DNA from: Curvularia clavata
Taxonomy: Eukaryota
Assembly (NCBI GenBank): GCA_023920165.1
Contig: CP089279.1
Coordinates: 806,001 to 870,000 of the forward strand
Reading direction: 5' to 3'
DNA: 64,000 bases
Position numbers and translations under genes: made by a program. The notes beneath the pieces were generated by a model. It searched no databases. It had not been told where the DNA came from and worked only from the letters and a program-made list of their open reading frames with translations. Shown here in pieces: positions 9,062-62,376 of the stretch; the stretch's first letter is position 1; each line of letters opens with the position of its first letter.

Positions 9062-10084
9062 TTAGTTTCGGCCACCAATTGCCATGCGCTTCTTGAGCCT
9101 GTAAGCAAGGGCGCGCTTCCTGGCACCAGCGCTCTGTGTGAAAGCAACTGAGCCACCGAAAGGTCCAGCCGCGGCACCGTTGCGTACTCGCATGACGCAG
9201 ACGTTGTTGACACCGGCAACAGTGGCATCGCAAGTCATACCGGCGGGCATCTGAACCTTCATCTCGAACTCGGTGTTGGTAGCGAGTGAGATACCCTGAA
9301 CTCCGAGACCTGGAACATCCTTGACAACTGTTGCTTTCTGCATGGCAGCCTCGTCAGTGCCACCGGATGTACCATCGACATCAGCTGTGAAGGGACCCGC
9401 ACCATCTTGGTTGATCTAAAGAACATTAGTGAGTGATTTTACACTGCGGGTTCGGTATCTTACCTGTCGGAGGGTCATCGTGACAGTGCCATCTTCAGCA
9501 CAAGTGGGCATTCCGCTGGCAGCACCAGCACCGACAGCAGCGGCGACGCGAGACTCAGGAGGGCCGTTGACCTTGTCGCCGCCTCCACCAAGCAGTCCAG
9601 CGATACCGGTCGCACCGCCAGCGCCACCCTTGTTACCATTACCACCTCCAAGAAGGCCACTCAAGAACTGGCGCTTCCGCTGAGCTGACTGGGGAATGTT
9701 GTCCTCAACACCAACACTTCCGGAGGCTCCTTGGTTGGCAGGTGGTGCAGAACCAGCTCCCATGAAGGCTCCGATCATGACCGCAGCATCGACTTTTCCG
9801 TTGCCCTGAGTGCGGCCAAGAGGACTAGCCTTACCGCTGGCAATCTCGCGGTCCCTGATGATGGCAGTGTCCGCCTGCGAACCGCAGCCGCTGAATTTCT
9901 GTTAGTTCGATGCTTCGAGGTATGATGATTGTGTAGCTTACTTGGAAGAGCAGTCACGAGGAGTTCCATCTTGGATCGTCAAGCCAGGCATGGTGACGCC
10001 ATTGGCACCCTTGATCTCAGTGACAACACCGTGGGCCGAGACGGCAGCGGCCAGGGCAAGAATAAGTGCTGGTGAGAAGTACAT
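9062..10084 (-). CDS. Secreted gEgh16/GAS1-like (DUF3129) protein; introns 9891-9941 and 9416-9463
   Basis: Signal peptide MYFSPALILALAAAVSA followed by HGVVTEIKGANG, SQADTAIIRDREI, RQINQDGAGPF and CVMRVRNGAAAGPFGG, typical of the family. Confidence 0.85.
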
Positions 10085-14865: not shown

Positions 14866-17800
14866 CTACTCCAACCCGGCCCCTGTTCCCCTTCTCCCGC
14901 CCATGTTCTGTCTTCCGCCAGCAGTACTAAAACTCTCCCTGTGCCTCGCCATCCCCCCAGCTGCATTCCCAGTAGCCCCATGCATCAAATCCAAATCCAC
15001 GGGCGTCCCCGCTCCGAGCGCAAACCCGTATGCTTCCGGTCCCTGAGCACCAAATACGGCCTCATCGCCCAGACTATGTTGTGCCGGGGGCTCGACATTA
15101 AACGGAACAAAGTAGCTGCTCATGGGATCGAAGAAGTTCGTGTTGTTGGGCCCGAGGCCGAGCGTGTCGAGGTTCCAGTATGCGTTGTGGAAGTCGGTGG
15201 CTAGGTCGGGGAAGGGGGATAGAGTCGAGGAAGAAGGATCGAGCTGGTGGTGCGTGTTGTGAGAGGGGTGAATGAGCGAAGGGGAGGTGTTGAGGAGAGG
15301 GAGGGACGAGTGTTGGTGGGAGGTGAAGTCGGCGAGGAATTGTTGCGAGGTGGATTGTGGTTGTTGCTGTTGTTGGTGCTGGAGGTAGAGGTTGACTGAG
15401 TCGTAGCCGGCGGCCATGGCGCCTTGGATGTCTTCTGCTGTGAACAGGGTGGTTGGTTCCATGCGCTGCTGTGTTTGCATGTGCGCGGCGGAGTTTTGCT
15501 GGGAGCGGTTGCTGTGTTGCTGCATCCGTGGGTCGGGTTTCGAGATTGACTTTGTCTTATTTCTCCGCGCTTGCTTGCGATGGTAATCTGATTTTGATGG
15601 TGGTGACAGCGATGCGAAGAATTCTTCCACGCTCTGCAGGTCGCTCTTGTGTCCCAGAACTGCGTCGGTACCTGGCTCCTTTTGACTTGATTCGGCGGCA
15701 TCTTCGTAATCCGTCTTTGATACGCCATGTGGATATCTGTCGAACCAATCTCCATACTGAAAGATGTTACCCTTGTTCTCACCACTAGCACTGGGTCCCT
15801 TGAGCTGCGCGTCGGCGTGTTGTCGATACAATTCTTTGAGATTCTCCGCAATGTAGTGGAACATGCCCCAGTATTTCTTCATTTTTGTCAGGTACTTGAC
15901 ATTGTATGCCAGGTACTTTTTCGATTGCGCTTCCAGCTTTGGGTTTTTGGAGAAAACGCCATGGACATGTACGGTGGAGGAGAAAAAGGCCGAATATCCA
16001 GCAAATGGGGCAACAACATTATGGTCCATGGCTTCGTTGATGAGAATCGAGATTTGGTTCGCGGCGTCGAGTGCAGCTCGGGCGGATTCTGTTAAAAAGT
16101 CATGCGGCATGTCCTTGGGTGGTCTGCTTCCAGCGGTAGAAGGCAGCGCAAACCGATGCATGAAGAGCATGATTTGCTGCCATAATATGTGAAGGTAGAG
16201 GAAGGAATTGGCCGTCCTTCCAATAGCATGGCTCTTGAGATTCTCGGGGCTGTATACGAGCATCTCCGGCAATGCCGCTTTAAAGTCCTTGGCTTCTTGT
16301 TTGATAGCATGGAATGTTGACCCTGGAGACCACATGGTATCTGCCTCGCGTTCCTTGCCACCCAGGTTCATGTACTTGATAAGCTTGCCCCATGTGCAGA
16401 CCAATCTGATGGTATATGCCGAGACGCCCATGTTGTCGCGAGGGTTTGAAAGCTGTCCACTGTCAGGGGGAACCGGGTTGGGCACATTTCCCTCGAGATT
16501 CTCTGTCGGCGCATGTATTTCGTGGATGTAAAGATGCTCCTTAACCGGTAATTGCACCTCGATGTACTGTTCGTGGACGAAAATCGGTCGGTCGGAGCCG
16601 GAAGAATTGAAGCGATCCATCAAAAAGCAAGACCACATTGTCCGCCGCCGTATTTCCTTGTCGGTCGCACTCAGGGGTTGCCGGTCGGATTCGCTGACCA
16701 GCGGGTCGTACTCGTTCTCCTTGTGCAACTGCAGTGCATATGCCATTCTTTGTGCCATACCACCAAACATCCAACTCCGTCCGCCCTGACATGTGCCGAA
16801 TTCGTGCAGTCCAAGCAACAGATAGACTATTAAAATGGTGATGTTAGGTGAATCGTATCGTTTTAAAGAAATTTCCCGCGCCCGCTCTGCCCAATTGTCT
16901 CCGCGCAGAAAACAGGGTTCTGTCCGTAGTTGCGGATGGTTTGAGAATCGGGCTGAAATGGCACAAATTGCGAGGATTAGTACAGGCGGAACCTTGCCCG
17001 CAGCCAGTTTCCGCATGAAACTTGGCTTGTGAAGAAGGGGATAACTCTGGCCGTAGACATAGTCAAAATATACCTCTGCCAAATGCTCTTGTATTTCTTT
17101 TGATGGCAGACTCTCTGCACCCTCTGTGAGAAGTTTGTTTTCGTCTGATTCTTTACTACGTGTGGTTGAGCCGGCAGTGTTTGGATCCGCGCCTCGTGCC
17201 CTGGACCACTCGTCCAGTTCATTGCCAAAGGCCTCTTCTGCGGGGCGTTTCTTGGTAGTCGGTGTTTTGGGTGGGGCGCCGGGGATAGCGGGCTTAACAA
17301 CAGATCTACCCACATTGGCAACCGAAGGCAGACTTTCTTTTGGGATGAGCTTAATGACACGATCCTCCATGCGCTTCAGTCTCTTGTCTAGCATGGCCAT
17401 ATAGTCTGTCCTCGGCGCTGCTTTTCTTGTCGTGACCTTGTATACGCAAGGTATCCTGCTGCGTAGACAGTGCTTGCAGGCTGGCTTTTCGCCTGAGCAG
17501 CGAATCTTCTTCCTTCGGCAGGCAATGCAAGCCAGTGGTAGCCTTTTTCGCTCTTTGCCGGCCTTTGTTTTCATTTCGCTCCATAGTGGCGGATCCTGAA
17601 CATCGTCTTTGCTGCGTTTGGAAGTGGTAGATTGGTCTGCGCCGTTGGATCCGGGTGCTGAGGCGTCCTTCATAGTATCGCCCATGGCGAACATACCCAG
17701 GGCGGCTTGGGCACTCTCTGGGCTGGTGTGATTTCCGTCGTGACCGGGACTTCCGGTGACACTCATTCTATTTAGGTGGGCGCTGCTGCTACCGCCACCG

Positions 17801-18090
17801 CTCATATCTGCGTCGCTCATGTTGCCAACACTACCTCTGTGATTGGCAAAGCCGGGCTCCATCTTGGGCTGCAGGCCGTCAAAGCTGGAACCAAAACCGT
17901 GGGCGTGTGCAAACGTCATGTCATAGTCGGCCAGAGAAGCCATCATGTTTGCGGGACTGGTGCCGACCGTGTTTGGCGAGGCTCGGAACTCAGTGAGACC
18001 GTACTCGCTCAGCATGAGCGAATCGTCGGCGTCGAAGGGCGGACGTGAAGGCTGGGCTACGGAGGCAGCGGTGGCGCCGTTGTCGGCCAT
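14866..18090 (-). CDS. Zn(II)2Cys6 transcription factor with fungal-specific TF domain (Prf/VAD-3-like)
   Basis: 1074 aa single ORF; ACIACRRKKIRCSGEKPACKHCLRSRIPCVY; central EIRRRTMWSCFLMDR homology region; Q-rich C-terminus. Family name is from recall and not verified. Confidence 0.92.
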   Translation of the reverse strand: MADNGATAASVAQPSRPPFDADDSLMLSEYGLTEFRASPNTVGTSPANMMASLADYDMTFAHAHGFGSSFDGLQPKMEPGFANHRGSVGNMSDADMSGGGSSSAHLNRMSVTGSPGHDGNHTSPESAQAALGMFAMGDTMKDASAPGSNGADQSTTSKRSKDDVQDPPLWSEMKTKAGKERKRLPLACIACRRKKIRCSGEKPACKHCLRSRIPCVYKVTTRKAAPRTDYMAMLDKRLKRMEDRVIKLIPKESLPSVANVGRSVVKPAIPGAPPKTPTTKKRPAEEAFGNELDEWSRARGADPNTAGSTTRSKESDENKLLTEGAESLPSKEIQEHLAEVYFDYVYGQSYPLLHKPSFMRKLAAGKVPPVLILAICAISARFSNHPQLRTEPCFLRGDNWAERAREISLKRYDSPNITILIVYLLLGLHEFGTCQGGRSWMFGGMAQRMAYALQLHKENEYDPLVSESDRQPLSATDKEIRRRTMWSCFLMDRFNSSGSDRPIFVHEQYIEVQLPVKEHLYIHEIHAPTENLEGNVPNPVPPDSGQLSNPRDNMGVSAYTIRLVCTWGKLIKYMNLGGKEREADTMWSPGSTFHAIKQEAKDFKAALPEMLVYSPENLKSHAIGRTANSFLYLHILWQQIMLFMHRFALPSTAGSRPPKDMPHDFLTESARAALDAANQISILINEAMDHNVVAPFAGYSAFFSSTVHVHGVFSKNPKLEAQSKKYLAYNVKYLTKMKKYWGMFHYIAENLKELYRQHADAQLKGPSASGENKGNIFQYGDWFDRYPHGVSKTDYEDAAESSQKEPGTDAVLGHKSDLQSVEEFFASLSPPSKSDYHRKQARRNKTKSISKPDPRMQQHSNRSQQNSAAHMQTQQRMEPTTLFTAEDIQGAMAAGYDSVNLYLQHQQQQQPQSTSQQFLADFTSHQHSSLPLLNTSPSLIHPSHNTHHQLDPSSSTLSPFPDLATDFHNAYWNLDTLGLGPNNTNFFDPMSSYFVPFNVEPPAQHSLGDEAVFGAQGPEAYGFALGAGTPVDLDLMHGATGNAAGGMARHRESFSTAGGRQNMGGRRGTGAGLE

Positions 18091-18712
18091 GACTGTCTTT
18101 TGCGACGAATGCGCCTTTGGCTTTGCCTCTTCGCGTTGTTGCGCAGAGCCGAGGCAATGTCACATTAGTGTTCCAAAACTTGGGCCGAGCTGGACAGGAT
18201 AGTAACAGGTCATGTGAGCGTGAACATGGCAGGCCGAAGCAACATTGTACGACGAGTGTATGCGTGTGTATGCAGTATGTATGAAACGGGCGTTTGTGTC
18301 GGAACAACGGACAAGGAGATTTTGGAGGCAGATGGGGAGGCTCCGACTTCTCCACAGGATAGTCACGGCCCTTTCCTGCAAAGCCAGTGGGGCGCTAGCT
18401 TTGTATATCAGAGCAGGGCCTGCAGTATGTGGGGAGGAGAAGAGAGAGAGGAACGTCAGCACGCGGCGCAAACTGGTGGGCAGAGCAATCACAGCACTCG
18501 ACGGCCAGGCTGGCTGGGCAAGGGGAGGCGGGCGGCGCTTTGCAGAAGCAGGAAACGAGGTGCACAATGACGGTGAGCCATGTAATGGACAAACGACGCA
18601 GCCAACACGTTAGCAGCAACGAGGCAAAGGCGGGAGCTGCGGCCCTGTCTCACTGTCGGTACGGCGGCTGGTCGCTGCGTTCGGTCCTATGATGCCGCGC
18701 TCTCCCATCATC

Positions 18713-20640: not shown

Positions 20641-21272
20641 TCATTCCTTGGCTGCTTCAACTTCAACTGCACGTGGGTAGTTGGAGTAGGACGAGTATGG
20701 ACTATGTTGGAAGCAGCCAGCATGTCAGCAAGAGTCAAATTTGAGTGAGAAAGGAAGAGGTGGACCTACTTATACGACTTGTAACTGAAGTCTTTGGAAG
20801 CATGCTCAGTCTCCATCACAACAGACATGTCCCGCTTCTTTGTCACGTCTGCCTCCCCAGCAGTGTGCATAATCAACTCCTTTGGCATAGCCATGACCAT
20901 GTCGCGCTTCATATTGTCCGCTTTCATAGCTTCAGCCTCAACTGCTGCTCCATAAATACAATAGGGCGAGTACGTTCCGTATCCTCTCTTCTGCGTGACG
21001 CGAGATTCTGCCATCTTGGCCTCCATGGCCACAGGGTACGGCGTGTATGAGGTGTAGCATGAGTACCCGCGCTTGGTGAGAGATATGGCGGCTGTCTGGG
21101 CCTCCTCTACTGAAGGATAGTTGCCATATGAAAAGTAGTAGGTACCATAGTTTCCGTAACTCTGTACTTGAGGCTGACTCGTCTCACGCTTCACGGAGGA
21201 GTCCATGCTTCTGCCCAGCGGAGCAGCGACTGCAAGGGCAGCGAGAGCTGCAATGATGCCAGCAATATGCAT
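20641..21272 (-). CDS. Secreted Kex2-processed repeat protein, putative RiPP precursor, 187 aa; intron 20702-20769
   Basis: Signal peptide MHIAGIIAALAALAVAAP, several KR sites and four Tyr-periodic units: SYGNYGTYYFSYGNYP, GYSCYTSYTPYP, GYGTYSPYCIYG, SYKSYNPYSSYSNYP. The last is restored by a GTAGGT...GCTGAC...TAG intron. Confidence 0.85.
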
Positions 21273-22263
21273 GGTGGTGGACGTCGAAAAAGCAGTGTAC
21301 GGCAGAAAGTAAGGGATGGATTTGATTCGGAAATGCTGCTTGTACAAGTCGTGATGGTGCGATGAATATGCTGCGAAAGCGACCCTTTTGTATACACCCG
21401 CGTTTACTCTGTCATCCAGAACATCTGGACATGTTCGACAATTTCGGGGATGTAACATCGTGTCTCGTCTGGTCATGACATTGCTGTGCTGGCTTGATTC
21501 TGCCGTCAGCTCAGCAATCACATATCGAAAAACCTGCAATCTTGTACCAACAATGTTACCTCATGTTACGCACGGGTCTTTCTATGATTAAGTCAACCCA
21601 TTGTATCGGGAGAACGCGATCCGGAATATTAGAACAGTGTACCTGGTACGTATGTAGAACAAACATTTTGTGCTCGGTACTGTGAAATCTGCCTTTGGTA
21701 TGACGAGGAAAGTCGGAACACGAGTGGGGTTGTGTGTTGAGCCCAGAAAGGGAGCAAGATGTCTTGAAACAGTGCTACGAGGGTTGGGCTACATGACAAT
21801 TCGACTGGTTTCAATAGCATAACGTAGCCACTGTGATGAAGACACTATATCCTAAACAAACTGTGCGTGATGATGTGGCTGGTCGAATAAATCGAGACAG
21901 GGTGTTTGATAACACCGCTCGGCAGTGACTAGTTTGACTTGGAATGTTTGTTCAATGTTGCACCATCACCGTCAGTACGCAGTGGGCAATGCTCGAGATC
22001 AGCCTATGTCAGTGAAACTGCACTCATCATCTTTGGCCTTTGTGTGCCAACTTGTTTGAGAAGTTTGTCAACTGTTGCAGTGCTACCGTCTGTCCCACAC
22101 GGTTACTCCGTAGTACTGACTGATTCGTACAGTCGATAGTACTCGGGAGTAGGTGGGACATTGCAGTATTAGATGATCCTACTAGGAAGCTTTGGAATTT
22201 TATGTGCTCCATGCCACCATCAGAGTAATATCTTCATTAATCTTCTGGCTCATACTTGGGCAA

Positions 22264-23384
22264 ATGCATACTCCTTTCGCTATGTTGAAGATATTTAGCA
22301 ACCGCCCTAGCCGTACTCGCCTATCTCAAGACTCTGAGAGCCAAGATGGCTTGCTGCCTACCTCTACAGCGTCACCACCCCTCAAGCACACTGCTTCGGA
22401 TCACTCGAGGCGTGACGTCTGGATCGCTGTAAGGACACACGTGCTGTGTACTGTTGCATATGTATGCGCTACGCTGTGGATGACATTTCACATACGCAGA
22501 ACTACACCCGTAGCTGATCCTGACAAATTCTGCATCCATCATGTCTCGCAATTCTGTAAGTGTAGAGGAAGAGAGGCCGGACGTAGTTGCTGACCTCCGT
22601 AGCTCCTGTTGTCAGAGACGTGAAGCCCAACTGGCACACACAAACATTCAACGGAAGCTTTTTGCACCAGAACATCTACCGGCAAGCGGCAGGCCCAGAA
22701 GTCGACGCGGCTTGGGATGCGCTTGGTATAAATTGTGAGTATCAATGATGTATGAAGATGCTTGTTTTAACGAATGCCAAAGACCGAAGCGTGGTGATTG
22801 CAGAGACCGAAGCAGAACAAACAGGACTGCGCCATGACCAAGTCAAAGTCAGCCAGGAGTACGGGGGTGGCTTCCCAGCCAATGTCGAAGGCTTGCATCA
22901 TCTGCATTGCTTGGCAAGTAGCAAAGTCTGATTCAACCAGGAATTGATACTGATTGCTTGGAGGATCTCCTTCGCAAGACGTTGCATTGGAACTACGACT
23001 ACTGTCTGGCGCAAAAGCAAGGCGCCTTCTTGAACAGCGAACATATCGTGCGTGTGCACACGACACACTGCCTGGATACTCTAAGACAGGTCCTCATGTG
23101 CGTCTAGGATGGCCCACTGCTCAAGCGACGACTGACCAACTAACGACTATCGTTGTAGGTGCAACCCCGATGTGGGCGTACTGGGCCAGGTATGGTGGCA
23201 GCCCGAGAACGAGCCAGAGCCGATGCCGTTTGTTGACTTCAACACGAGGCATCGGTGTCGCGACTATGAGGCTATACGGAGATGGGCAGAGGCACACCAA
23301 CTGCCGCCAGAAACGGAGGTGGATATGCAGCGCTTCTACGAGAAACCGAAGGCGGGAGACACAATCTTGAGAGAGATCCCATGA
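22264..23384 (+). CDS. DUF3328/UstYa-family oxidase; introns 22556-22602, 22735-22782, 22914-22963 (GC-AG), 23098-23158; start could instead be the ATG at 22282
   Basis: N-terminal TM helix, PEVDAAWDALG, GGGFPANVEGLHHLHCL, HTTHCLDTLRQVLMCNPD and FNTRHRCRDYEAIRRWA. Both HxxHC motifs are intact after splicing. Confidence 0.92.
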
Positions 23385-23491: not shown

Positions 23492-24088
23492 TCAGTTCTG
23501 GCGAGGCTTGACTACGCCATCGTGCACTATGTAGTAGACGACGGTACTGTCCGTGTCGACTGTTGCCAGGACCACGCGCTTGGTGGTCCGCCAGGGGTTG
23601 GCTGGGCTATCGACGGTCGTGCTCTTGTCGTCTGCGGGCGGGAGGATGCTGATGGCATCAAAGACGCCGGCCAGGTCACGCAGCGTCCACCGCTCCTTGA
23701 GTCTGGTAGGCAGAATCCATTCGCGCTCGGGCTGGGGCTTGATATCGAGGGGAACAGGCTCGCCGGCGGCGCGGGCTTTTCTCTTGCGGTCGGCCTTCTC
23801 CAACAGGTCGTCCTGCTCGTCGGGATGGATGTAGAGGCGCTGGGGCGGGAGGCCAGAGACGAGTGGACGGGGCAGCGGGCGGTTGGTGATGGGCGAGTGG
23901 GTGTGAATGCGCAGCTGGGACCAGTAGTGCTGGTGCTGGAGATTGTGCAGGATCTGACGGGCGAGCGACGTCTCATTGGGAAGGTGAGATGAGGGCGTGT
24001 CTGGCGTGGACGGCGCTGATACGAACGTCTGCAGCGGGGCCGGTGCGATGGCGGGTTTCACGCCGGCGTGCACAGCAGACGTCGTCAT
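23492..24088 (-). CDS. SEN15: tRNA-splicing endonuclease subunit Sen15
   Basis: ILHNLQHQHYW, SGLPPQRLYIHPDEQ, EREWILPT and the C-terminal KRVVLATVDTDSTVVYYIVHDGVVKPRQN. Confidence 0.92.
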   Translation of the reverse strand: MTTSAVHAGVKPAIAPAPLQTFVSAPSTPDTPSSHLPNETSLARQILHNLQHQHYWSQLRIHTHSPITNRPLPRPLVSGLPPQRLYIHPDEQDDLLEKADRKRKARAAGEPVPLDIKPQPEREWILPTRLKERWTLRDLAGVFDAISILPPADDKSTTVDSPANPWRTTKRVVLATVDTDSTVVYYIVHDGVVKPRQN

Positions 24089-24379
24089 GGTCGGGCCTGG
24101 GCGCTCGAGATTAATTGGCGGTCTGAGGTTTCGCGCGGCGCTGGGGTGAAGGAGAAGCTATGCGGTTGCGGAAGGAGCGAAGATCTTGCCTCGTCTCCCC
24201 CACCACTCACGAGAGCATGCCCACCCCAACTAGGCAACGGCCGTGGCGCCTCTGCTTCTTTTATACTGGGCACTGCGGTCAGGACACGCGTACTGCTATC
24301 TGCTGCCATTCTTCTTTGCGCCCTTGAAAAGACTCCCAATATCACCATCAAAGGCCAGTATCGAGACAACATCGTCACC

Positions 24380-24998
24380 ATGCGCGCATCCATCTCCAGC
24401 TCCGTCGCCATCCCCACATTGCTGCTTCTGGCTAGCGCAGCCGTTGCACAAGACGCATCCACATCCGTCTCCGTCGTCACCTCGCCCTTTGTCAGCCCCT
24501 CGCCCACCGACGAGCAGGTCTACACTATCCAGACGGACACAACCGCCGTCGCCTCGGACCCATGGGCCTGCTACCAGGACTGCTTCATGCCGCCTTGCCC
24601 GCCATTGGCGTGTAAGTACAACCACCATGTACATATATGTACAGCATCACATACTGACTCGCCCAGGCACCAATAGCGGTGGTGTCGACTCAGCGACGCC
24701 GATTCCCTTGCCCCGGCCCGTCTCCGAGTCTATAGTGTCAGAAATCACAGATGCATCCCTCTCCACCGTCTCTGGCTTCATGTCGATTCCCGTGGGTGAG
24801 ACACCCATCAGTTCTGGCGCCATTGTCACTTCTGCCAGTGGCTCCCCCACCGCCAGCGCGTCGTCGGCCGGGAGCAGCGCAGGAACCCGGACTACCTCAG
24901 GACTACCCCAGGCAACGTCCAATGCGGCAGCACTCAATGCCAAGGCTGACCAAATTCCCCTCGTCGCAGCCATTGCTGGTGCTCTAGTACTGCTTTGA
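24380..24998 (+). CDS. Small Ser/Thr-rich, probably GPI-anchored cell-surface protein; intron 24612-24666
   Basis: Signal peptide, short Cys cluster (WACYQDCFMPPCPPLAC), S/T-rich stalk, SNAAA omega-like site and hydrophobic tail. Confidence 0.8.
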
Positions 24999-25603
24999 GC
25001 AAGTAGTATATAGCAGCACGATAGGGCTGAATCACAAAATTGCGCATTGCTAACGGCAGTTCTATGTATGTAGTCTGGTTCAACTGGCGTCTATGGCAGC
25101 TAGGTGTATTGTTGGCGAATCTTCTCACGAGTATGATAAACGACAAATAGATAGTACGAAGCAAATCAAACATATTACCCCAGTTGTACACCTACTCCAG
25201 ATTGTGGCGCAGTGGCTGAACACGTAGTCGTGCTGCACAAGCGATCCAACGTGCCATTAGCGCGTGGCGTAGACAACGCAGGGAAGTGGATCCAGGGCCC
25301 AACTGCGCGTCCAACACAGTCTAGCCCGCCTCCTTCCATCCTATCCTCCGCAGTCTCTCCGCCGGTAAAAGGTTTCAATGGCGCCCACAGGGGCATGCCC
25401 GCTCTTCTTCTCCGCGCCCTCGACCTCGGACGTCATATACCATCCCAAGTCGTGACTCAACAAAAGCAAAATTCTTGCCAAGGCACCACGGAATTGCACT
25501 AGCCACCGTCCATCACCTTGGCTGCCAGATTGAGCCACAAGGGGATACGCTCCAATTGTACATAACCAAGGACGCCGTGCAGCTACTCTCTGCACTGCTG
25601 CTC

Positions 25604-50782: not shown

Positions 50783-51529
50783 GTGTAGGTGTGCACATGC
50801 GTCAAGGTACAGCTGGCTGGGTATCGTGATTCGGATGCGTGAATGCTTGCAGTGCTGTTTAGATTAGTGATATCAGGCGGTGTGTTTGAATTTTCGTTAC
50901 AGTCGCGTGGGTTTTGGCATTGAATTTTGGTAGTTTGGTCCAAAGCTGTGGATAGGTATGGCTTACAACGCGGGCCTGGTCGTCACAACTAGTGTTGTTG
51001 AACCTCTCTGATAGTTAATTTAGATGCATAGTGGCTCGCTTGACAGCTTTCGGATGTTTTTACCAGCTGTTAAGAGCGTCTAGCGGTTGCTAGTACCGCA
51101 CGTGACCTGGTTGCCAACAAATCACCTGACAGGTGCTAGACGTTCCTAGCCTACCCACTATTGTTGAACGACTCTCTGCAGCACTCTCACTACCAGATGT
51201 GCCTAGTTGTTGAGTCAATCAGCTGAAAATGTCCAGACTGAAATGTAAACCTTTTGCCTGTACCTTTGTTGGTAACTGTACAAGACGAAGGACTCGGCTG
51301 GGTAAATGTGAATCTTACAACACTGCTGCCTAGCATAGCCCCACCAATACAGCCTTGTTACTCTATCTATCCTAAAGAATACAGCCTTACATACAATAAA
51401 GAAGGCTGGATGATGCCCTATAGATCTGCGATATTTATTGTCGAGGTCCATGCTGACACTCTTTATTCAAAACTCTCGCACACCGTTTTGACTGCACAAC
51501 TAAGAAGTTCTTTTTGATAACTGGAAGTC

Positions 51530-53983
51530 ATGGCTTCTGTGCCGACTGTACATGCCCACCAAGCTTTGCAGCAATTTTCTGAGTCCGAGAATCTTTCGGG
51601 TACGAACAACAGAGAACACAACGAAGACTCAATCGTATTTATTCCGGATATTTCTCAGGAAATCGACCCTGTGCCTTCCTCAGACGACGTTCTTTGTGCA
51701 TCATGTTCCGAGATTCATTCTGAGTGCAGTTGCACGGTAGCAGAAACCTCAACTATTGGCGCTACTATATCCAATGGAAAATGTCCTTCATGTCGGCTCA
51801 TAGCTCAGTGTATAAGCTCTTCTGCAAGAGCACGGTCAATGCCTCTCGATTCAAAGATCTTATTATGGAGAGCTCCGTTATTTTTGGAAGACCCATCTGA
51901 TCGTCAAGGCGAACATGCAAATGTTCTGACAAAACGCGTCGAGATCCGATTATGCATGCAAAAGCCGGGAAGTGAGGAACGAATTGTGATCGATCATTGC
52001 GACATAATCGGAGTGCTGTTACCTGTAGAGGGTAACGAATTCAGTGACAGCAGCAAACCGACAGGCCATGAAGTACTCTTCAAGACGTTAAAGTGTCAAG
52101 GCTCCGTTTATGCGCGCCCAATTACCTACACAGTTGACGTAGAATTGATCAGGACTTGGATAGACTTCTGCACTGTCTCCCATAGTTTCTGCAGAATAAC
52201 CAAAACACCTAATCCTGCGAACACAGGCGTACGCCTTATAGACGTGGTGGAAAGACGCTTGTTTGATGCGACCCTGGTCGAAGAATACATCGCACTTTCG
52301 TATGTGTGGGGGTCCGATAACAACAAAGTGCTCACGAAAAGTACTTTGAGGCATCTCCAAGAAAAAGGAGGTCTGTCCTCGACTACCATCCCTCGTTTGG
52401 TCGCTGATGTCATGGATTTTGTTGCTGAGATTGGGGAAAGATATCTTTGGATTGATACAGTGTGCATTGTCCAGGATGATCCTTTGGACAAATTACGTCA
52501 GCTTCCCAATATGCCCTCCATCTACGACCATGCAAAACTCACTATTGTAGCAGCGGTAGAAAGCGCAAATGACCCCCTGCCAAGATGGAACAAATGCCAC
52601 CACAAGGTATCAGTGCCTACTGAGTTGATACGAGGCATTGCTCATACAATCGGAGAACCCCCTTTAGTGACAGCTCTGACACAGACCACTTGGATCAGAC
52701 GTGGATGGACGTTCCAAGAAGCATTTTCAGCGAGGCGATTGCTAGTCTTCACTCAAGACTTGATCTATTGGAGTTGTCACGAGGAGTCTTGGTGTGAAGA
52801 CCAGTATACCGAGTTTCACAACGTCAAGAACGAGCCGACACCAGAAACATCGTTATTCCTAACAAGTGTTTGGGAGAATTCCTGCAATGGCAATAAATCA
52901 GTAACCAAGTTATGTGCCATGGGGCTGTACGTACGACATGCCCAAGACTACTCTCAAAGATTGTTCAGCAACTACTCTGACGTAGTTAAGGCCTTTATAG
53001 GTATTCTCAAAGCCATGAAAGAGTACTTTCCAAACGGATACATCTGGGCTTTGCCATACGATAAACTGGATGCTGCATTACTTTGGTTGACATGCTGTGA
53101 AAAGACTGAGTTTCTAGAACACCAGTGCGATCTCAGTCCCGAAAGTCGTTTACCAATTCCATCATGGAGTTGGATTGGAAAAGGACATAAGGTCGAGTTC
53201 CGGTATGGAATTTGCGAAACTAAGTCTCGCATCACTTGGCACGAACCGGTGAAGTGCTGGTCATCGAACACCGACACCGTTGATCATGACCAAGAGCTAA
53301 GGCATCTTCCTCAGGCGTCCGTAATGTGTGGTCCACAAACTATAACGGAAGACGGTGTTACACTTGACTACGCGTTTCTTCACTTTACTGCTCAGACGGC
53401 TATGCTCTCCATTGAGCTAGAACCTGACCCAAGAAATTTAGAAATTTTCAACGCCTACATCAGGAACGAACAGGCGAATTCTAAAAGCCATCAACTTGTC
53501 GCTGCCAACATATTTCTGTCCTCCAAAAAAGCAATCGGCCAGATTTTGGTCCCAGCACACATGTTCCAAGACAGTACACAGCAGCTTCAGGAGTTTGTAC
53601 TACTCTCTGAATACCCCGGCCGACTTCATAACGAAGTTCTCAACAATAAAACGCGTCCCGTCGAGGGACAAAAGCCTGGAAAGAGCTTCGACCGTGATCG
53701 CCATGACCATGACAGTGGGAGCTCGCACCAAGAAGAGGAAGAGGCCTGTGGAATTGAAGATGAAAAGCACCAAAATCAAGAGTTTGTGGATGCAAATGAA
53801 AGCCTTGTTCCAGAGGGACGTAAGGATGGCTTCAGACACCACTCCGCGCTGAATGTAATGCTGATTGAGTGGGATGAAATGCACGATATAAAGAATTTCG
53901 CTCGACGGGTGGGTATCGCCCGCATTGATCCTTCCGCGTGGGAAGAGGTGGAGAAAACAGAGAAGACAATCATCTTGGGATAG
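51530..53983 (+). CDS. HET-domain (heterokaryon incompatibility, TOL-like) protein
   Basis: RLIDV, YIALSYVWG, ERYLWIDTVCIVQDD, MPSIYDHAKLTIVAA, WIRRGWTFQE and PSWSW. Confidence 0.93.
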   Translation: MASVPTVHAHQALQQFSESENLSGTNNREHNEDSIVFIPDISQEIDPVPSSDDVLCASCSEIHSECSCTVAETSTIGATISNGKCPSCRLIAQCISSSARARSMPLDSKILLWRAPLFLEDPSDRQGEHANVLTKRVEIRLCMQKPGSEERIVIDHCDIIGVLLPVEGNEFSDSSKPTGHEVLFKTLKCQGSVYARPITYTVDVELIRTWIDFCTVSHSFCRITKTPNPANTGVRLIDVVERRLFDATLVEEYIALSYVWGSDNNKVLTKSTLRHLQEKGGLSSTTIPRLVADVMDFVAEIGERYLWIDTVCIVQDDPLDKLRQLPNMPSIYDHAKLTIVAAVESANDPLPRWNKCHHKVSVPTELIRGIAHTIGEPPLVTALTQTTWIRRGWTFQEAFSARRLLVFTQDLIYWSCHEESWCEDQYTEFHNVKNEPTPETSLFLTSVWENSCNGNKSVTKLCAMGLYVRHAQDYSQRLFSNYSDVVKAFIGILKAMKEYFPNGYIWALPYDKLDAALLWLTCCEKTEFLEHQCDLSPESRLPIPSWSWIGKGHKVEFRYGICETKSRITWHEPVKCWSSNTDTVDHDQELRHLPQASVMCGPQTITEDGVTLDYAFLHFTAQTAMLSIELEPDPRNLEIFNAYIRNEQANSKSHQLVAANIFLSSKKAIGQILVPAHMFQDSTQQLQEFVLLSEYPGRLHNEVLNNKTRPVEGQKPGKSFDRDRHDHDSGSSHQEEEEACGIEDEKHQNQEFVDANESLVPEGRKDGFRHHSALNVMLIEWDEMHDIKNFARRVGIARIDPSAWEEVEKTEKTIILG

Positions 53984-57989: not shown

Positions 57990-58446
57990 TTGCGACAGGC
58001 CACACGTTAGACGTGTGGCAGTGGGACCGTGTTCAAGGAGCGGGCTAATTTACGACTGTTGGACATGCGCGAAGGATGCTGTACAACAGGCTCCAGGATG
58101 AGAAAGACACGCCGGTATCAGCGATGCAGGATCCAACCATGGTTTGCGTGTTAGTAACGACGCGATCACAATCGCTACAGCGGGGGCGGGTATTAGCAGA
58201 AAAACCCGGATCATTCGCCGCACACCCCTCAAAGTACGCCCCACATGCTGCTGTGCCGAATGAGGAAACTTCGCCCGACCCGTGTGGTAATGAATTCCGA
58301 AGACACGCTTATTCCCCGCGGGGAAACCATATACTAGGTATCTGGCATCAGCTCTTACCAGCATCGGAGGCGCTAGCAGGTTTAAAGACCAGGACCCTGC
58401 TGTACAGTGCTACAATCGACAAAACCAGGTCAGACTATCCATCACC

Positions 58447-59613
58447 ATGCCCCACGCACTACCACCAGAGCAAGATGTATCAAGTCTCGAAGGCAAGAAG
58501 CTCTTCGTAAACGATGGCCTACTTCAACCCGGCCAGGTCAGCCGAATGCAAGAGTCGTCTCCAGACCTTCCCATAGACGAGCTGCGTCGCCGCTACAATG
58601 AGGATGGCTATCTCTTCCTCAAGGGACTTTTGCCCCGAGAAGACGTCCTGAAAGCCCGAGAAGAATACTTCAAAATGCTTACACCAAGCGGCGTATTGAA
58701 ACCAGACACGCTACCTGTGCAGGGTATCTTCGACCCTGAAAAGGACCCCGCAGACTTCCCTGGCATCGGCGCCGGAGCCGCCCCCGGCAACGGCAAGCCC
58801 GGCGAAGCTACGGCTGAGAAGTTTGTGGATCTGGCACTGCAAGCCCACTATGCAGACTGGTACAAGGAGACCTTTTGTAAGCATCCCGCGTTGAAAGATT
58901 TCATTGCGAGGATGACGGGCTGGGGCGACGATACCCTCGCCGTTCGCAGAAGCCTGTTGCGGAACAATACGCCGGGCAACAAGGCCATTGGCGTGCATTA
59001 CGATCAAATTTTCCTACGCCATGGCGAACCCACTTCGGTCACTGCTTGGGTTCCAATGGGTGATATTAGTCTGACCGGCGGCGGACTGATCTACCTAGAA
59101 AACGGTGCGTTGTGCATGACATAATCTCGCAACATCTAGGTGGGAATTAACACTCACTGCAGGACATACCCTCGGTCGCGAGGTAGAAGCAGACTTCACT
59201 CGCAAAGCGGCGGAAAGCGGTTTGAGCGAACAAGAAACAAAGGACGCGTTCAATCAGAATATGATGTCCAATGGGCTGCTGGCTGACGGTCCACGAGAGT
59301 ACTCAGACACGTTTGGGAGGCGATGGTTAGTGACAAACTACGAGGCCGGCGATGTGGTGTTGCATACGCCTTATACTGTAAGCCCACCAATAACGCTATA
59401 CTTGAAAGAAACAAGCACTGAAACCGCAAAGATTCATGCATCGACAATGAATTACGACCCAGAAAACGTGATTCGAGTGGGCACTGATTTGAGATTTGTT
59501 GATAAAAGCAAGCCTTGGGACACAGTGAGTAAAATCCTCATCCTAGATTCTGAGCATTGGAGTAACATTTCTAGCGGTGGGATAAGGATTACGAATTCAA
59601 CGACGGAGTTTGA
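58447..59613 (+). CDS. Phytanoyl-CoA dioxygenase family Fe(II)/2-oxoglutarate oxygenase; introns 59105-59162, 59378-59431, 59525-59574
   Basis: DGYLFLKGLL, VHYDQIFLR (HxD), TAWVPMGD, YEAGDVVLH...IHAS and IRVGTDLRF. Confidence 0.92.
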
Positions 59614-59809
59614 ATGGCTGTTCTTGATTCTCTCACACATGGCGGCTGAATTTTCAATGGAGGGTATCCTTTATTCACCAGAGAAATCAGCCGTTGGCAG
59701 CTCTTCCCTACTACTTCTGAATTTTCGAAACATTATTAAATCAGTCGTAAAGAACAGCATCTCAAAGAAGAACTGGAATGATTGATCCCATCTCCAGGCC
59801 GCCACAGCC

Positions 59810-61051
59810 TCAAACACTAACCCACTCATACGGCGGCAAGTTGGACTCATCAGGCTGATCACCCGGCAACAACTTGTATGCCTTAGACTTGCACAATGTC
59901 CACGCAATCGCGTCTCTTACTTTAATCCCCCACGCCGTCTGGGGAAACGCCAGCTGCGGGTACCCAGGCGGCAAATCCCCCTCCTTCGCTATGACAGCTT
60001 GAAAAGCTTTTTCATAGGCCTTCAGCGCACCAGGAACATCATCGGTGGATTTGATCTTGGATAACTCTCCAGCGAGAAAATAGGCGCCCTCGATAGCCAG
60101 CGTTGTTCCCACTCCAAAAGTAGCATGTGCCGCGTCGCCCAGCAAAGTAGCACGGTGTTTCGTCCAAGTAGGAAGTCTGACGCGTGCCATCCTGCTCATG
60201 TAGAAATCGTCACACTCATCCATTCCTGCCAGGATCCGCTCAGCCTGCCATCCAGCGTCTTTGAAGTACTCGTGCAAGAAAGCTTTCTGGGCATCTGGTC
60301 CCGCGTCCATGGCTTTCTCGGCAACGGGATCACGCTGCCCGTGCTGGGGTGTTGTTACAACTATATAGCATCCTACTGTCTTCTCATTGCGGTGCGGTCG
60401 CGTCATGAGTCCTCGGCCTTTCGTTGCGTTGTACCAGTACCAGTGTTTTGTATCGGTTGACTGGCGAGGAATGCTGAAGAAAGCGGTGTACTGTCCGATG
60501 AAGTTGTAACTATCCTTTCTCTCCTCTTCACTTAGAATCAATGATCGAATCCTTGAGGTTGAGCCGTCTGCGCCCACGATCAAGTCGAAGCTTTCCTTGT
60601 CCCCATTTTCAAACTCCACATCTACTTTTCTTTCGGTCTGCTCGATTGCCCTAACGTAGTCACCGTACGTGTACTTTACGTTTTGGCGATTCTTTGTCGC
60701 GTCTACAAAAAGACTGCACAGATCTGCTCTCAGAATCTCGTATTCAGCCGTGGCGGATCTTCCTTTGCCAAACTCGGCAATGACTTTGTTGGATGAGTCT
60801 ATGATGCGTGTCCCTATTTCTGTGGTGTTGTACGCGCGGATGGCCTCGAGCAGATTCATTTTCTGTACAATGGAAATAGCTGGACCTCGAATATCGATTG
60901 ACTGGCCTGTTGCTCTAGGGGTAGGTGAGCGTTCAAGGACGGTAATTGATGCATTGAGATTTGTTCTGCTGAGCCAGTAGGCAAGGCAAGAGCCGGCGAT
61001 TCCAGCACCATTGACGAGGATTTTTAGTTGAGGGGCTGTAGCTAACGACAT
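59810..61051 (-). CDS. FAD-dependent monooxygenase/oxidoreductase
   Basis: GAGIAG, GQSIDIRG, DLIVGADG and LLGDAAH. Confidence 0.93.
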   Translation of the reverse strand: MSLATAPQLKILVNGAGIAGSCLAYWLSRTNLNASITVLERSPTPRATGQSIDIRGPAISIVQKMNLLEAIRAYNTTEIGTRIIDSSNKVIAEFGKGRSATAEYEILRADLCSLFVDATKNRQNVKYTYGDYVRAIEQTERKVDVEFENGDKESFDLIVGADGSTSRIRSLILSEEERKDSYNFIGQYTAFFSIPRQSTDTKHWYWYNATKGRGLMTRPHRNEKTVGCYIVVTTPQHGQRDPVAEKAMDAGPDAQKAFLHEYFKDAGWQAERILAGMDECDDFYMSRMARVRLPTWTKHRATLLGDAAHATFGVGTTLAIEGAYFLAGELSKIKSTDDVPGALKAYEKAFQAVIAKEGDLPPGYPQLAFPQTAWGIKVRDAIAWTLCKSKAYKLLPGDQPDESNLPPYEWVSV

Positions 61052-61602
61052 GTTTGCTGATCGATTATTTTTTAAAATGCGGTTCGGGTGCAGATTTCAT
61101 CGAGCGGGATGGTGATTATATACGCTCGACTTGTTGCAGTAGTCTTTCAGGCATCCATAATACAAGCGGGAAAGACCATCCGACCACCAGGTTCCTGTGC
61201 ATCCATAGAAGGCACGTTGCCATGCGCGTAGCGGCGAAGCATATCCCCGGGTCCCGACACTTGTCAAGATTGAACATTCTAAGAAGAGATAAGCATCATA
61301 TCAAATCCCTGCGCTCTGGTCATGTTTCATGGCTTGTACAGATTGTGGAAGCTTGCCAGACATGTCGGTGTTTTGAAGTTTCCGCAGCCAATCACAGCTC
61401 CTAAAGACGTCCCTGCTTGACCCGGAATCCCCGAAAGTCCGACAAACCTCTGGATTATGAGCTTGCAATCATACATGGTATCCCTTCTGGAACATTGATG
61501 ATGTCATTGGGCGAGAAAAAAAGGCGGGCAAGGCGTCCCTTCGTGTCCCCATCGAGATGATGACTCCAGTAGACCCCTCCTCAACACACCATTATCAACA
61601 CT

Positions 61603-62376
61603 ATGGCACGCATTCTCATCACAGGCTCTTCTGATGGCCTGGGCGCTGCCGCCGCCCAGCGTCTAATCGCCAACGGCCACTCTGTTGTCCTGCACGCCCG
61701 CAATGCTCAGCGCGCAAAGGATGCTACCGCTGCGTGTCCAGGCGCAGAAACTGTCGTAACCGGCGACCTATCGAGTCTCTCCGAGACCAAGAAGATGGCA
61801 GAAGAAGTCAACAAACTAGGTACCTTCGACGCCGTTATTCACAACGCCGGTCTGTTCCGAGGCCCTTACCGGAAAACACCTGAAGGCATTCCAGCACTCG
61901 CAGCCGTCAACACTATTGCGCCATACGTCCTCACTGCACTTATCAAACGTCCCAAGCGCCTGGTATTTCTCTCTTCAGAGATGCACCAGCATGGTTCTCC
62001 GGACCTGGACGATGTTCTTTGGACCAAGCGTGGGGAGACGGCGTACAGCGAAAACCCTGCCTACTGCGCAAGCAAACTCCATAACGTCATGTTCGCAAAG
62101 GCATTTGCTCGCAGGTGGCCAGAAGTCAAGAGCAATGCACTGGATCCTGGCTGGGTTGCAACCAAGATGGGCGGTAGTTCTGCACCTGAGAGCATCGATG
62201 CGGCCGTTGAGAGCTATGTCATGCTTGCCGTTGGCGAAGAGCTGGCAAAGAAGAGTGGATGCTATTTTCATCCAAGCAAGCGGGAGGGCCGCCCACACAA
62301 GGCTACCGAAGATGAACAGGCTCAGGACAAGTTGTTGGAGATTTGTGCTGAGTTTTCTGGCGTTAAGCTGTCATAA
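61603..62376 (+). CDS. Short-chain dehydrogenase/reductase
   Basis: TGSSDGLG, HNAG, YCASK and PGWVATKMGG. Confidence 0.94.
   Translation: MARILITGSSDGLGAAAAQRLIANGHSVVLHARNAQRAKDATAACPGAETVVTGDLSSLSETKKMAEEVNKLGTFDAVIHNAGLFRGPYRKTPEGIPALAAVNTIAPYVLTALIKRPKRLVFLSSEMHQHGSPDLDDVLWTKRGETAYSENPAYCASKLHNVMFAKAFARRWPEVKSNALDPGWVATKMGGSSAPESIDAAVESYVMLAVGEELAKKSGCYFHPSKREGRPHKATEDEQAQDKLLEICAEFSGVKLS

Follow-up and report, generated by a model that had tools for sequence, protein, structure and literature searches.

A compact locus at positions 20641..23384 of a 64,000-nt stretch of Curvularia clavata DNA (contig CP089279.1, positions 806,001 to 870,000; this whole stretch is referred to below as the window, and all coordinates are relative to it) pairs a gene for a Tyr-periodic repeat protein punctuated by KR dipeptides with a divergently oriented gene for an oxidase of the UstYa/DUF3328 family. 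We favor, with moderate confidence, the reading that this is a Pleosporales-wide, minimal two-gene module of the dikaritin type for a peptide that is ribosomally synthesized and modified after translation (RiPP), in which a Golgi-lumen copper oxidase would cross-link the Tyr units of its Kex2-processed neighbor. By analogy with the characterized systems compared below, the product of the pair is probably a new kind of cross-linked peptide. The boundaries given for the locus in an earlier sequence-only reading were exact, with the precursor translation stopping at 20641 and the oxidase gene ending at 23384; of its overall interpretation, the UstYa/DUF3328 enzyme, the KR-punctuated, Tyr-periodic repeat neighbor, the linkage of the two genes and the minimal character of the locus stand, and the cross-linking itself stays conditional.

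The identification of DUF3328 enzymes as two-copper C-H oxidases is recent, and only a few natural substrates have been assigned to them; Tyr residues held invariantly in i+3 register across a precursor family would offer a clean natural test of iterative action by one such enzyme. The family occurs beside one orthologous oxidase in many cereal and crop pathogens, among them Curvularia, Bipolaris, Exserohilum, Alternaria and Parastagonospora; this suggests that the peptide serves these fungi in a conserved, non-accessory way. The pair is compact enough (two genes, about 2.7 kb) for direct expression.

Tyr periodicity and structure of the precursor

The Tyr periodicity of the precursor is far above chance: 14 of its 19 Tyr residues are followed by another Tyr at +3, compared to a mean of 1.8 and a maximum of 7 in composition-preserving shuffles, none of which (0/2000) reached 14. 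KR dipeptides are also strongly enriched, with 5 observed versus 0.51 expected, a count that 0/20000 shuffles attained. The same excess of i+3 Tyr was found in all 25 other family sequences scored, the observed count being attained in 0/2000 shuffles for each of them, and KRG is the commonest tripeptide ahead of a Tyr run in the precursor family (21 occurrences).

The precursor gene lies on the minus strand (20641-21272), where translation of two exons joined across one GT..AG intron yields a 187-aa protein with a hydrophobic N-terminus. Exon 1 (20770..21272) encodes aa 1-167 plus two bases: it covers the signal-like N-terminus, Tyr units one to three and a Met-rich segment, and runs into unit four; the 68-nt intron (20702..20769) falls within this last unit, and exon 2 (20641..20701, including the stop codon) contributes NPYSSYSNYPRAVEVEAAKE. 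With the intron removed, the Tyr period is kept across the junction (NPYSSYSNYP), and five relatives have spliced NCBI models (P0054, P0008, P0126, P0098 and P0101) in which the sequence continues alike past the intron. The deposited precursor model is the unspliced frame of 168 aa, which ends in SYK and loses the end of the fourth Tyr unit; the stored entry P0001 is this identical open frame, that is, exon 1 read on unspliced.

The first 20 residues (MHIAGIIAALAALAVAAPLG, 21213..21272, minus strand) resemble a signal peptide in their hydrophobicity and family-wide conservation. Residues 3-17 form the top-scoring 15-aa stretch of the precursor on the Kyte-Doolittle scale (mean 2.62; N-terminus IAGIIAALAALAVAA), which fits a predicted signal peptide.

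The rest of the protein consists of imperfect tandem repeats, four Tyr units in all, separated by kexin (KR) sites, with KR dipeptides at residues 28, 67, 95, 122 and 146. Unit 1 (aa 38-53, SYGNYGTYYFSYGNYP, 21114..21161, minus strand, as are the units that follow) contains two Y-x-x triads with a one-residue phase slip, a double triad found again in most of the listed family members. Unit 2 (aa 69-80, GYSCYTSYTPYP, 21033..21068) and unit 3 (aa 97-108, GYGTYSPYCIYG, 20949..20984) immediately follow KR 67-68 and KR 95-96, and have 10 and 9 of their 12 positions, respectively, invariant in 8 close homologs. Unit 4 (aa 162-177, FSYKSYNPYSSYSNYP, 20674..20789) is the one split by the intron. Units 2 and 3 thus have their N-terminal edges directly at KR, and units 1 and 4 begin 8 and 14 residues, respectively, into predicted Kex2 fragments. 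The sequence-only reading had described four Tyr units each followed by an Ala/Glu-rich spacer (PSVEEAQ, PVAMEAK, GAAVEAEAMK and PRAVEVEAAKE), and all four spacers are present in the translation.

A Met-rich segment (aa 124-135, DMVMAMPKELIM, 20868..20903, minus strand) follows KR 122-123 and has the family consensus KRHMxMxMPKEM; a loose Met-rich pattern matched 18 of the 25 family sequences scanned. This Met/His-rich segment is the best conserved non-Tyr part of the precursor family. It can be likened to Cu(I)-binding Met motifs, a resemblance that may be suggestive beside a two-copper enzyme.

The UstYa/DUF3328 oxidase

The partner gene occupies the plus strand at 22264-23384, where five exons encode 304 aa, or 298 aa when translation begins at the second ATG (22282), the Met position at which the orthologs begin (MLKIF). 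The four introns measure 47, 48, 50 and 61 nt, and the third is bounded by GC..AG. Exon 1 (22264..22555) encodes the cytosolic tail and a putative membrane anchor, the best hydrophobic stretch being aa 52-70 (22417-22473). The remaining exons match the PF11807 model at positions 58-90 (exon 2, 22603..22734, 24.1 bits), 95-137 (exon 3, 22783..22913, 27.4 bits), 138-176 (exon 4, 22964..23097, 25.1 bits) and 179-220 (exon 5 with the stop codon, 23159..23384, 43.2 bits), so that exons 2-5 are colinear over positions 58-220 of the 220 in the model; exons 3-5 score above its curated cut-off of 25 bits and exon 2 below it. Exon 5 is 100% identical to yc1106_07915 of Curvularia clavata, and the Bipolaris maydis ortholog scores 175.8 bits against PF11807 (E 1.5e-51).

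Both halves of the HxxHC(x)nHxxHC signature are present in the 304-aa model: HHLHC at aa 180, encoded at the end of exon 3 (22896-22910), and HTTHC at aa 217, encoded in exon 4 (23057-23071). Together with the PF11807 matches, they bear out the earlier assignment to DUF3328 with both copper motifs. Across 25 orthologs, H178, H179, H181, C182, H215, H218 and C219 are all invariant, as are three further Cys residues (C88, C229 and C261 in the numbering of P0056), which would be compatible with a copper- and O2-dependent, disulfide-linked dimer.

The GenBank model of the oxidase (P0009, yc1106_07915, 290 aa) omits GFPANVEGLHHLHCL (22864-22963) and so loses the first copper motif. That stretch is retained in 9/9 aligned orthologs and is encoded in the window once intron 3 (22914-22963, directly after exon 3) is read as GC..AG. 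Judged by sequence, both GenBank models at the locus, precursor and oxidase, look defective, illustrating how current gene models can hide such loci.

The putative anchor has a low Kyte-Doolittle mean (1.46) and supports a membrane helix weakly. In the AlphaFold2 model of the B. maydis ortholog, built with 25 close orthologs, helix 49-77 was the sole block with a predicted local distance difference test score (pLDDT) above 70, the overall mean of 46.5 being poor. A profile search of solved structures with the oxidase alignment gave 0 matches at E <= 1, and a complex prediction for the lumenal domain of the B. maydis oxidase with precursor residues 62-128, run without controls or supplied alignments, scored 0.00. 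The UniRef name of the oxidase orthologs, 'Tat pathway signal sequence', is apparently an automatic misnomer.

Distribution and variation of the precursor family

A word-based search retrieved 7 precursor homologs; an exhaustive profile search, run against 1.84 billion representatives, returned 28 proteins at E <= 1e-3, of which 11 reached <= 1e-10 and 6 reached <= 1e-30. Independent NCBI gene models of the precursor exist in Bipolaris, Exserohilum, Alternaria, Pyrenophora and Parastagonospora. Pfam returned no match for the precursor frame of the window or for the four family members scanned, and look-alikes of the precursor in the ESM Atlas had best scores of 0.78-0.80, which is the noise range. 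A metagenome scan with the precursor alignment yielded 2 loci from 62 pattern matches; both lie on bacterial contigs and were rejected as chance matches. The UniRef name of the B. maydis precursor, 'SPOR domain-containing protein', again appears to be an automatic misnomer.

The aligned members share a common architecture: a signal-like MHxxxxLAxLAxxAxAAP, a first unit YxxYGxYYxxYGxYP, one to six further units that usually start with KR-G-Y and often contain one Cys each, an AAxEAEAAKM tail behind each unit, the Met-rich segment, and an intron that interrupts the last Tyr unit at a conserved place. At a mean column identity of 45%, 8 close homologs keep every one of the 16 Tyr in the 168-aa frame, and in the wider family the Tyr register is constant while the x positions vary, the first x of Y-x-x being mostly G, T, S or A and the second mostly S, P, T, C or K. 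Close homologs preserve the KR sites just ahead of units 2 and 3 (K67, K95 and R96 invariant, with one KH at the first site). Repeat number differs by species, with two extra units in Exserohilum turcicum and a Bipolaris oryzae model lacking both Cys-bearing units. This latter model (P0098, COCMIDRAFT_30820) keeps, of its Tyr units, just the first and the last, together with the Met-rich segment, the loss of the two Cys-bearing KR-GY units being either a true deletion or a gene-model artefact.

Conservation of the gene pair

As the sequence-only reading had described, the two genes stand head-to-head about 1 kb apart: they diverge from a shared intergenic region of 991 bp from ATG to ATG (21273..22263; 1009 bp if the oxidase begins at the second ATG). 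Linkage in other species was read from identifiers, since accessions and locus tags follow gene order; their use as positions is an inference. Consecutive precursor/oxidase identifiers were found in B. maydis (BM1_07518/07519, EMD87469/70, ENI06668/69 and KAJ5035253/54), B. oryzae (EUC40199/98), Alternaria rosae (J4E91_007197/007196 and KAH6868333/32) and Parastagonospora nodorum (KAH4058143/44), and E. turcicum has EOA88465/66 and ACJQWK_02165/02168. In C. clavata, a Zn2Cys6 factor is yc1106_07913 and the oxidase yc1106_07915, which makes the precursor the gene between them. Precursor and oxidase are thus neighbors in 6/6 species with identifiers for both (Curvularia, two Bipolaris, Exserohilum, Alternaria and Parastagonospora); Pyrenophora tritici-repentis, for which the precursor identifier alone was seen, is outside this count. 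The possibility raised with the original proposal, that orthologs of the two genes would prove unlinked, is therefore not what these species display.

The pair also appears to be self-contained. We scanned with Pfam 195 of the 210 stop-to-stop frames of at least 90 aa in the 64-kb window and found no tyrosinase, methyltransferase, transporter or peptidase domains among them, in agreement with the earlier description of a minimal locus with no adjacent tyrosinase, methyltransferase or transporter. The gene set of the ustiloxin and phomopsin clusters (tyrosinase UstQ/PhomQ, methyltransferase and S41 peptidase) is accordingly absent from the frames scanned.

A Kex2-repeat precursor beside a DUF3328 oxidase is already known as a kind of locus. 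DUF3328 genes are described as enriched beside Kex2-repeat genes in general (PMC7329392), and fungiSMASH-type pipelines are reported to flag UstYa-containing regions as 'fungal-RiPP-like' (PMC13159263), so that the present locus would probably be flagged generically. The precursor family, in turn, appears undescribed. EMD87469, ENI06668 and EOA88465 (B. maydis, E. turcicum) are absent from Table S2 of Umemura 2020, in which the rows for those three strains are seemingly complete; the family hence seems to have escaped that catalogue of repeat proteins processed by Kex2 (KEPs). In the full-text literature, a scope that excludes Ding 2016, Nagano 2016, Ye 2019, Chiang 2025 and the protein-level data of Le Marquer 2019, no account of a UstYa-linked precursor with Tyr periodicity was found, nor was any paper found to name six locus tags of the orthologs.

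Proposed pathway

In the pathway that we propose, the 187-aa precursor would enter the secretory pathway and be cleaved by Kex2, in the Golgi, past its five KR sites. Two such cuts would expose a Tyr unit of the form G-(Y-x-x)3-Y-[PG] as a new N-terminus with an Ala/Glu-rich tail (AAVEAEAxK) behind it. The UstYa/DUF3328 protein would be a single-pass membrane enzyme with a lumenal two-copper HxxHC...HxxHC center, which would oxidize C-beta-H bonds in the Tyr units and allow the Tyr phenol oxygen to close an ether ring; proteases encoded elsewhere would trim the tails. The second ring of asperipin-2a spans Y-x-x-Y (Tyr3-Tyr6). On this pattern, and because Tyr recurs here at i+3, each Y-x-x-Y could close a ring, and a 12-residue unit with four Tyr could carry up to three fused rings.

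The enzymatic side of the proposal follows the description of DUF3328 enzymes (CctR, with AprY also reported) as membrane-anchored, lumenal, dimeric, two-copper and O2-dependent, with the HxxHC(x)nHxxHC motif (PMC12435403). The same source describes a cytosolic tail, one membrane helix and a lumenal helical domain, disulfide-linked dimers, and a location in Golgi, endosome and vacuole membranes. AprY is reported to form the Tyr-O to Phe-C-beta ether of asperipin-2a (PMC12186524).

A more specific version of the pathway is tentative and, in our estimate, rather doubtful. In it, one copper oxidase would walk each (Y-x-x)n unit and link the phenol oxygen of each Tyr with the beta-carbon of the Tyr located three residues upstream, giving a ladder of three to five fused 17-membered rings; the KRHMxMxMPKEM segment would serve as a copper-binding or enzyme-docking follower, and the product's role in Pleosporales would be physiological and conserved, and not that of a sporadic toxin. 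If true, this fused-ring ladder would be a peptide topology so far undescribed in fungi.

Comparison with known systems

The Tyr units match neither of the two cores named next and are not known to match any other dikaritin core. The earlier claim that they correspond to no characterized dikaritin holds against YAIG and FYYTGY as given in PMC6514808.

By analogy, the closest known case is asperipin-2a. Its system in Aspergillus flavus (aprA, aprY) likewise comprises a Kex2-repeat precursor, a Tyr-rich core and a single DUF3328 enzyme in a small cluster without a tyrosinase (PMC6514808, PMC9233826, PMC12186524); the cluster is described as having only four genes, with aprY essential (PMC6514808). 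Asperipin-2a has the core FYYTGY and two ethers running from a Tyr side chain to a beta-carbon (PMC6514808, PMC9233826), a ring system that has been likened to the Leu-Tyr-Tyr di-ether of selanine A, core VLFYPSY (PMC11253845). In contrast to this core of 6 residues, the cores here comprise 12-16 residues with 4-6 Tyr in strict i+3 register and often one Cys, and no aprT-type transporter or aprR-type reductase was found within 10 kb among the frames scanned. The present pair is order-wide, whereas asperipin is sporadic, and it is known from genes alone.

The ustiloxin and phomopsin systems share with the pair a signal or signal-like peptide, KR-separated repeats and a UstYa-family oxidase, which in their case gives a Tyr-O to C-beta ether ring (PMC6514808, PMC9233826). 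However, they need a tyrosinase (UstQ/PhomQ), at least two UstYa paralogs, a methyltransferase, S41 peptidases and a cluster regulator, none of which is adjacent here, and their cores of 4-6 residues contain a single Tyr, unlike the units described above. The epichloecyclin cluster (gigA, the DUF3328 gene gigB, gigC and kexB) resembles the locus in being compact, with one repeat precursor and one DUF3328 gene, and in the Tyr-linked ring of its product (PMC10540207, PMC9233826); it differs in having its own methyltransferase and kexin, nonapeptide cores with one Tyr, and grass-induced expression in Epichloe. More generally, the pair resembles the KEPs of Umemura 2020, secreted repeat proteins with KR sites and an adjoining DUF3328 gene.

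A more distant parallel is the plant burpitide selanine A (VLFYPSY, BURP-domain copper cyclase), which is made by a copper enzyme with four planar His and carries a chained Leu-Tyr-Tyr di-ether whose second ring spans Y-P-S-Y (PMC11253845, PMC12435403). The plant enzyme has an unrelated fold, belongs to another kingdom and is fused to the precursor, and its product has two rings only.

Alternative explanations

Several points weigh against the two-gene module. A cluster peptidase, transporter and reductase are absent among the scanned frames. Certain homologs have KG or KH in place of KR at individual sites, the B. oryzae model has neither Cys-bearing unit, and named precursor homologs were seen in six genera only. 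DUF3328 enzymes are described as also capable of hydroxylation and halogenation (PMC12435403), so the chemistry need not be ether formation. The oxidase, at 45-94% identity over the full length in 25 orthologs, shows far more sequence conservation than is usual for a secondary-metabolite gene, a degree of conservation that would suit a structural or developmental role as well as a toxin. The co-expression, product and enzyme activity of the pair, finally, are proposals that start from the sequence.

RNA data add to these points. One of 24 sequencing runs is recorded as RNA; runs X17, X9, X22 and X23 were compared with the window at the level of contigs, and parts that no contig covers count as no evidence. 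X17 gave one 338-nt contig (23105-23442) that enters an intron unspliced at low depth, and X9 one 448-nt contig (20718-21165) that runs 52 nt into the precursor intron, likewise unspliced and at low depth. As these contigs are unspliced over both genes, they demonstrate neither splicing nor co-expression. The same two runs contain spliced contigs over a neighboring gene, with 24611 joined to 24667. X22 and X23 gave low-depth fragments of near-identical DNA that are uninformative on synteny in relatives.

Order-wide conservation of the oxidase and of the module as a whole, which has a housekeeping-like character, would also be expected if the Tyr-periodic protein had a structural role, either secreted or associated with the wall, with intra- or interchain cross-linking of its Tyr ladders by the neighboring copper oxidase or other oxidases, as in plant extensins, and with the KR sites serving maturation only. 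Mostly small or polar x positions (G, T, S, P, C, K) that vary freely around fixed Tyr are a usual trait of structural repeats of low complexity, neither the first nor the last unit has KR at both of its ends, and the missing cluster transporter and peptidase would be no anomaly. Yet KR is enriched tenfold and is kept before units 2 and 3 in close homologs, the unit copy number varies in the manner of Kex2-repeat precursors, and the DUF3328 substrates described in PMC6514808 and PMC12435403 are all small peptides; we therefore consider a structural protein unlikely.

Alternatively, the conserved adjacency could be passive. The Zn2Cys6 factor lies 2 to 5 locus tags from the oxidase in five further species (P. 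teres, A. rabiei, C. glycines, Kalmusia and P. minitans), and in several more the two are on equally long contigs. The whole block, including this factor, is thus microsyntenic across Pleosporales, so that adjacency is not specific to the pair and constitutes weaker evidence. If microsynteny alone kept the genes together, the precursor would give Kex2 peptides that are unmodified or modified by unlinked enzymes, and the oxidase would have another substrate. Named oxidase orthologs occur in many more Pleosporales genera than precursor homologs do, and the RNA contigs give no expression coupling. The narrower apparent range of the precursor is nonetheless weak evidence, because annotation readily overlooks small precursor genes or cuts them short, as in the GenBank model here, which is without exon 2. 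The head-to-head genes, moreover, share a 1-kb region, and a Tyr-ladder substrate is specifically matched to an enzyme family described as cross-linking Tyr (PMC6514808, PMC12186524), which leaves passive adjacency improbable in our view.

That the Tyr-periodic frame is a chance open frame or a low-complexity artefact with no real gene behind it, as the missing Pfam family and the lack of clean spliced RNA might suggest, is scarcely credible in the face of 28 homologs at E <= 1e-3 (6 of them at E <= 1e-30), 16/16 Tyr invariant in 8 homologs, and independent gene models in five genera.

Other features of the window

The only Pfam domains found near the pair belong to the Zn2Cys6 factor, a Sen15 gene (23495-24157) convergent with the oxidase, a DUF2985 protein and an ERG4/ERG24 sterol reductase. 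The Zn2Cys6 factor (14869-18159, minus strand), two genes off, has a GenBank model of 1470 aa compared to about 1030-1080 aa in most relatives, and is 85-95% identical in most listed Pleosporales and about 70% in Botryosphaeriales. We considered it as a cluster-specific regulator and rejected this role, since conservation at these levels is the behavior of a core regulator.

At 22692-22734, a divergent contig of run X9 matches oxidase exon 2 over its final 43 bases alone and departs exactly where the exon stops (22734); a paralogous DUF3328 gene in another organism, sharing the intron position, would yield a spliced transcript of this appearance. The neighboring gene covered by spliced contigs (24318-25000, plus strand) encodes a Ser/Thr-rich protein with a hydrophobic N-terminus, and its 55-nt GT..AG intron (24612-24666) is confirmed by X17 and X9. 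Farther away, the window contains a homolog of an Egh16-like virulence factor (9065-9901, minus strand) and a HET-domain protein (51521-53980, plus strand). A PhyH-like dioxygenase, an FAD monooxygenase and a short-chain dehydrogenase lie close together at 58294-62373 and may represent a separate small metabolic cluster.

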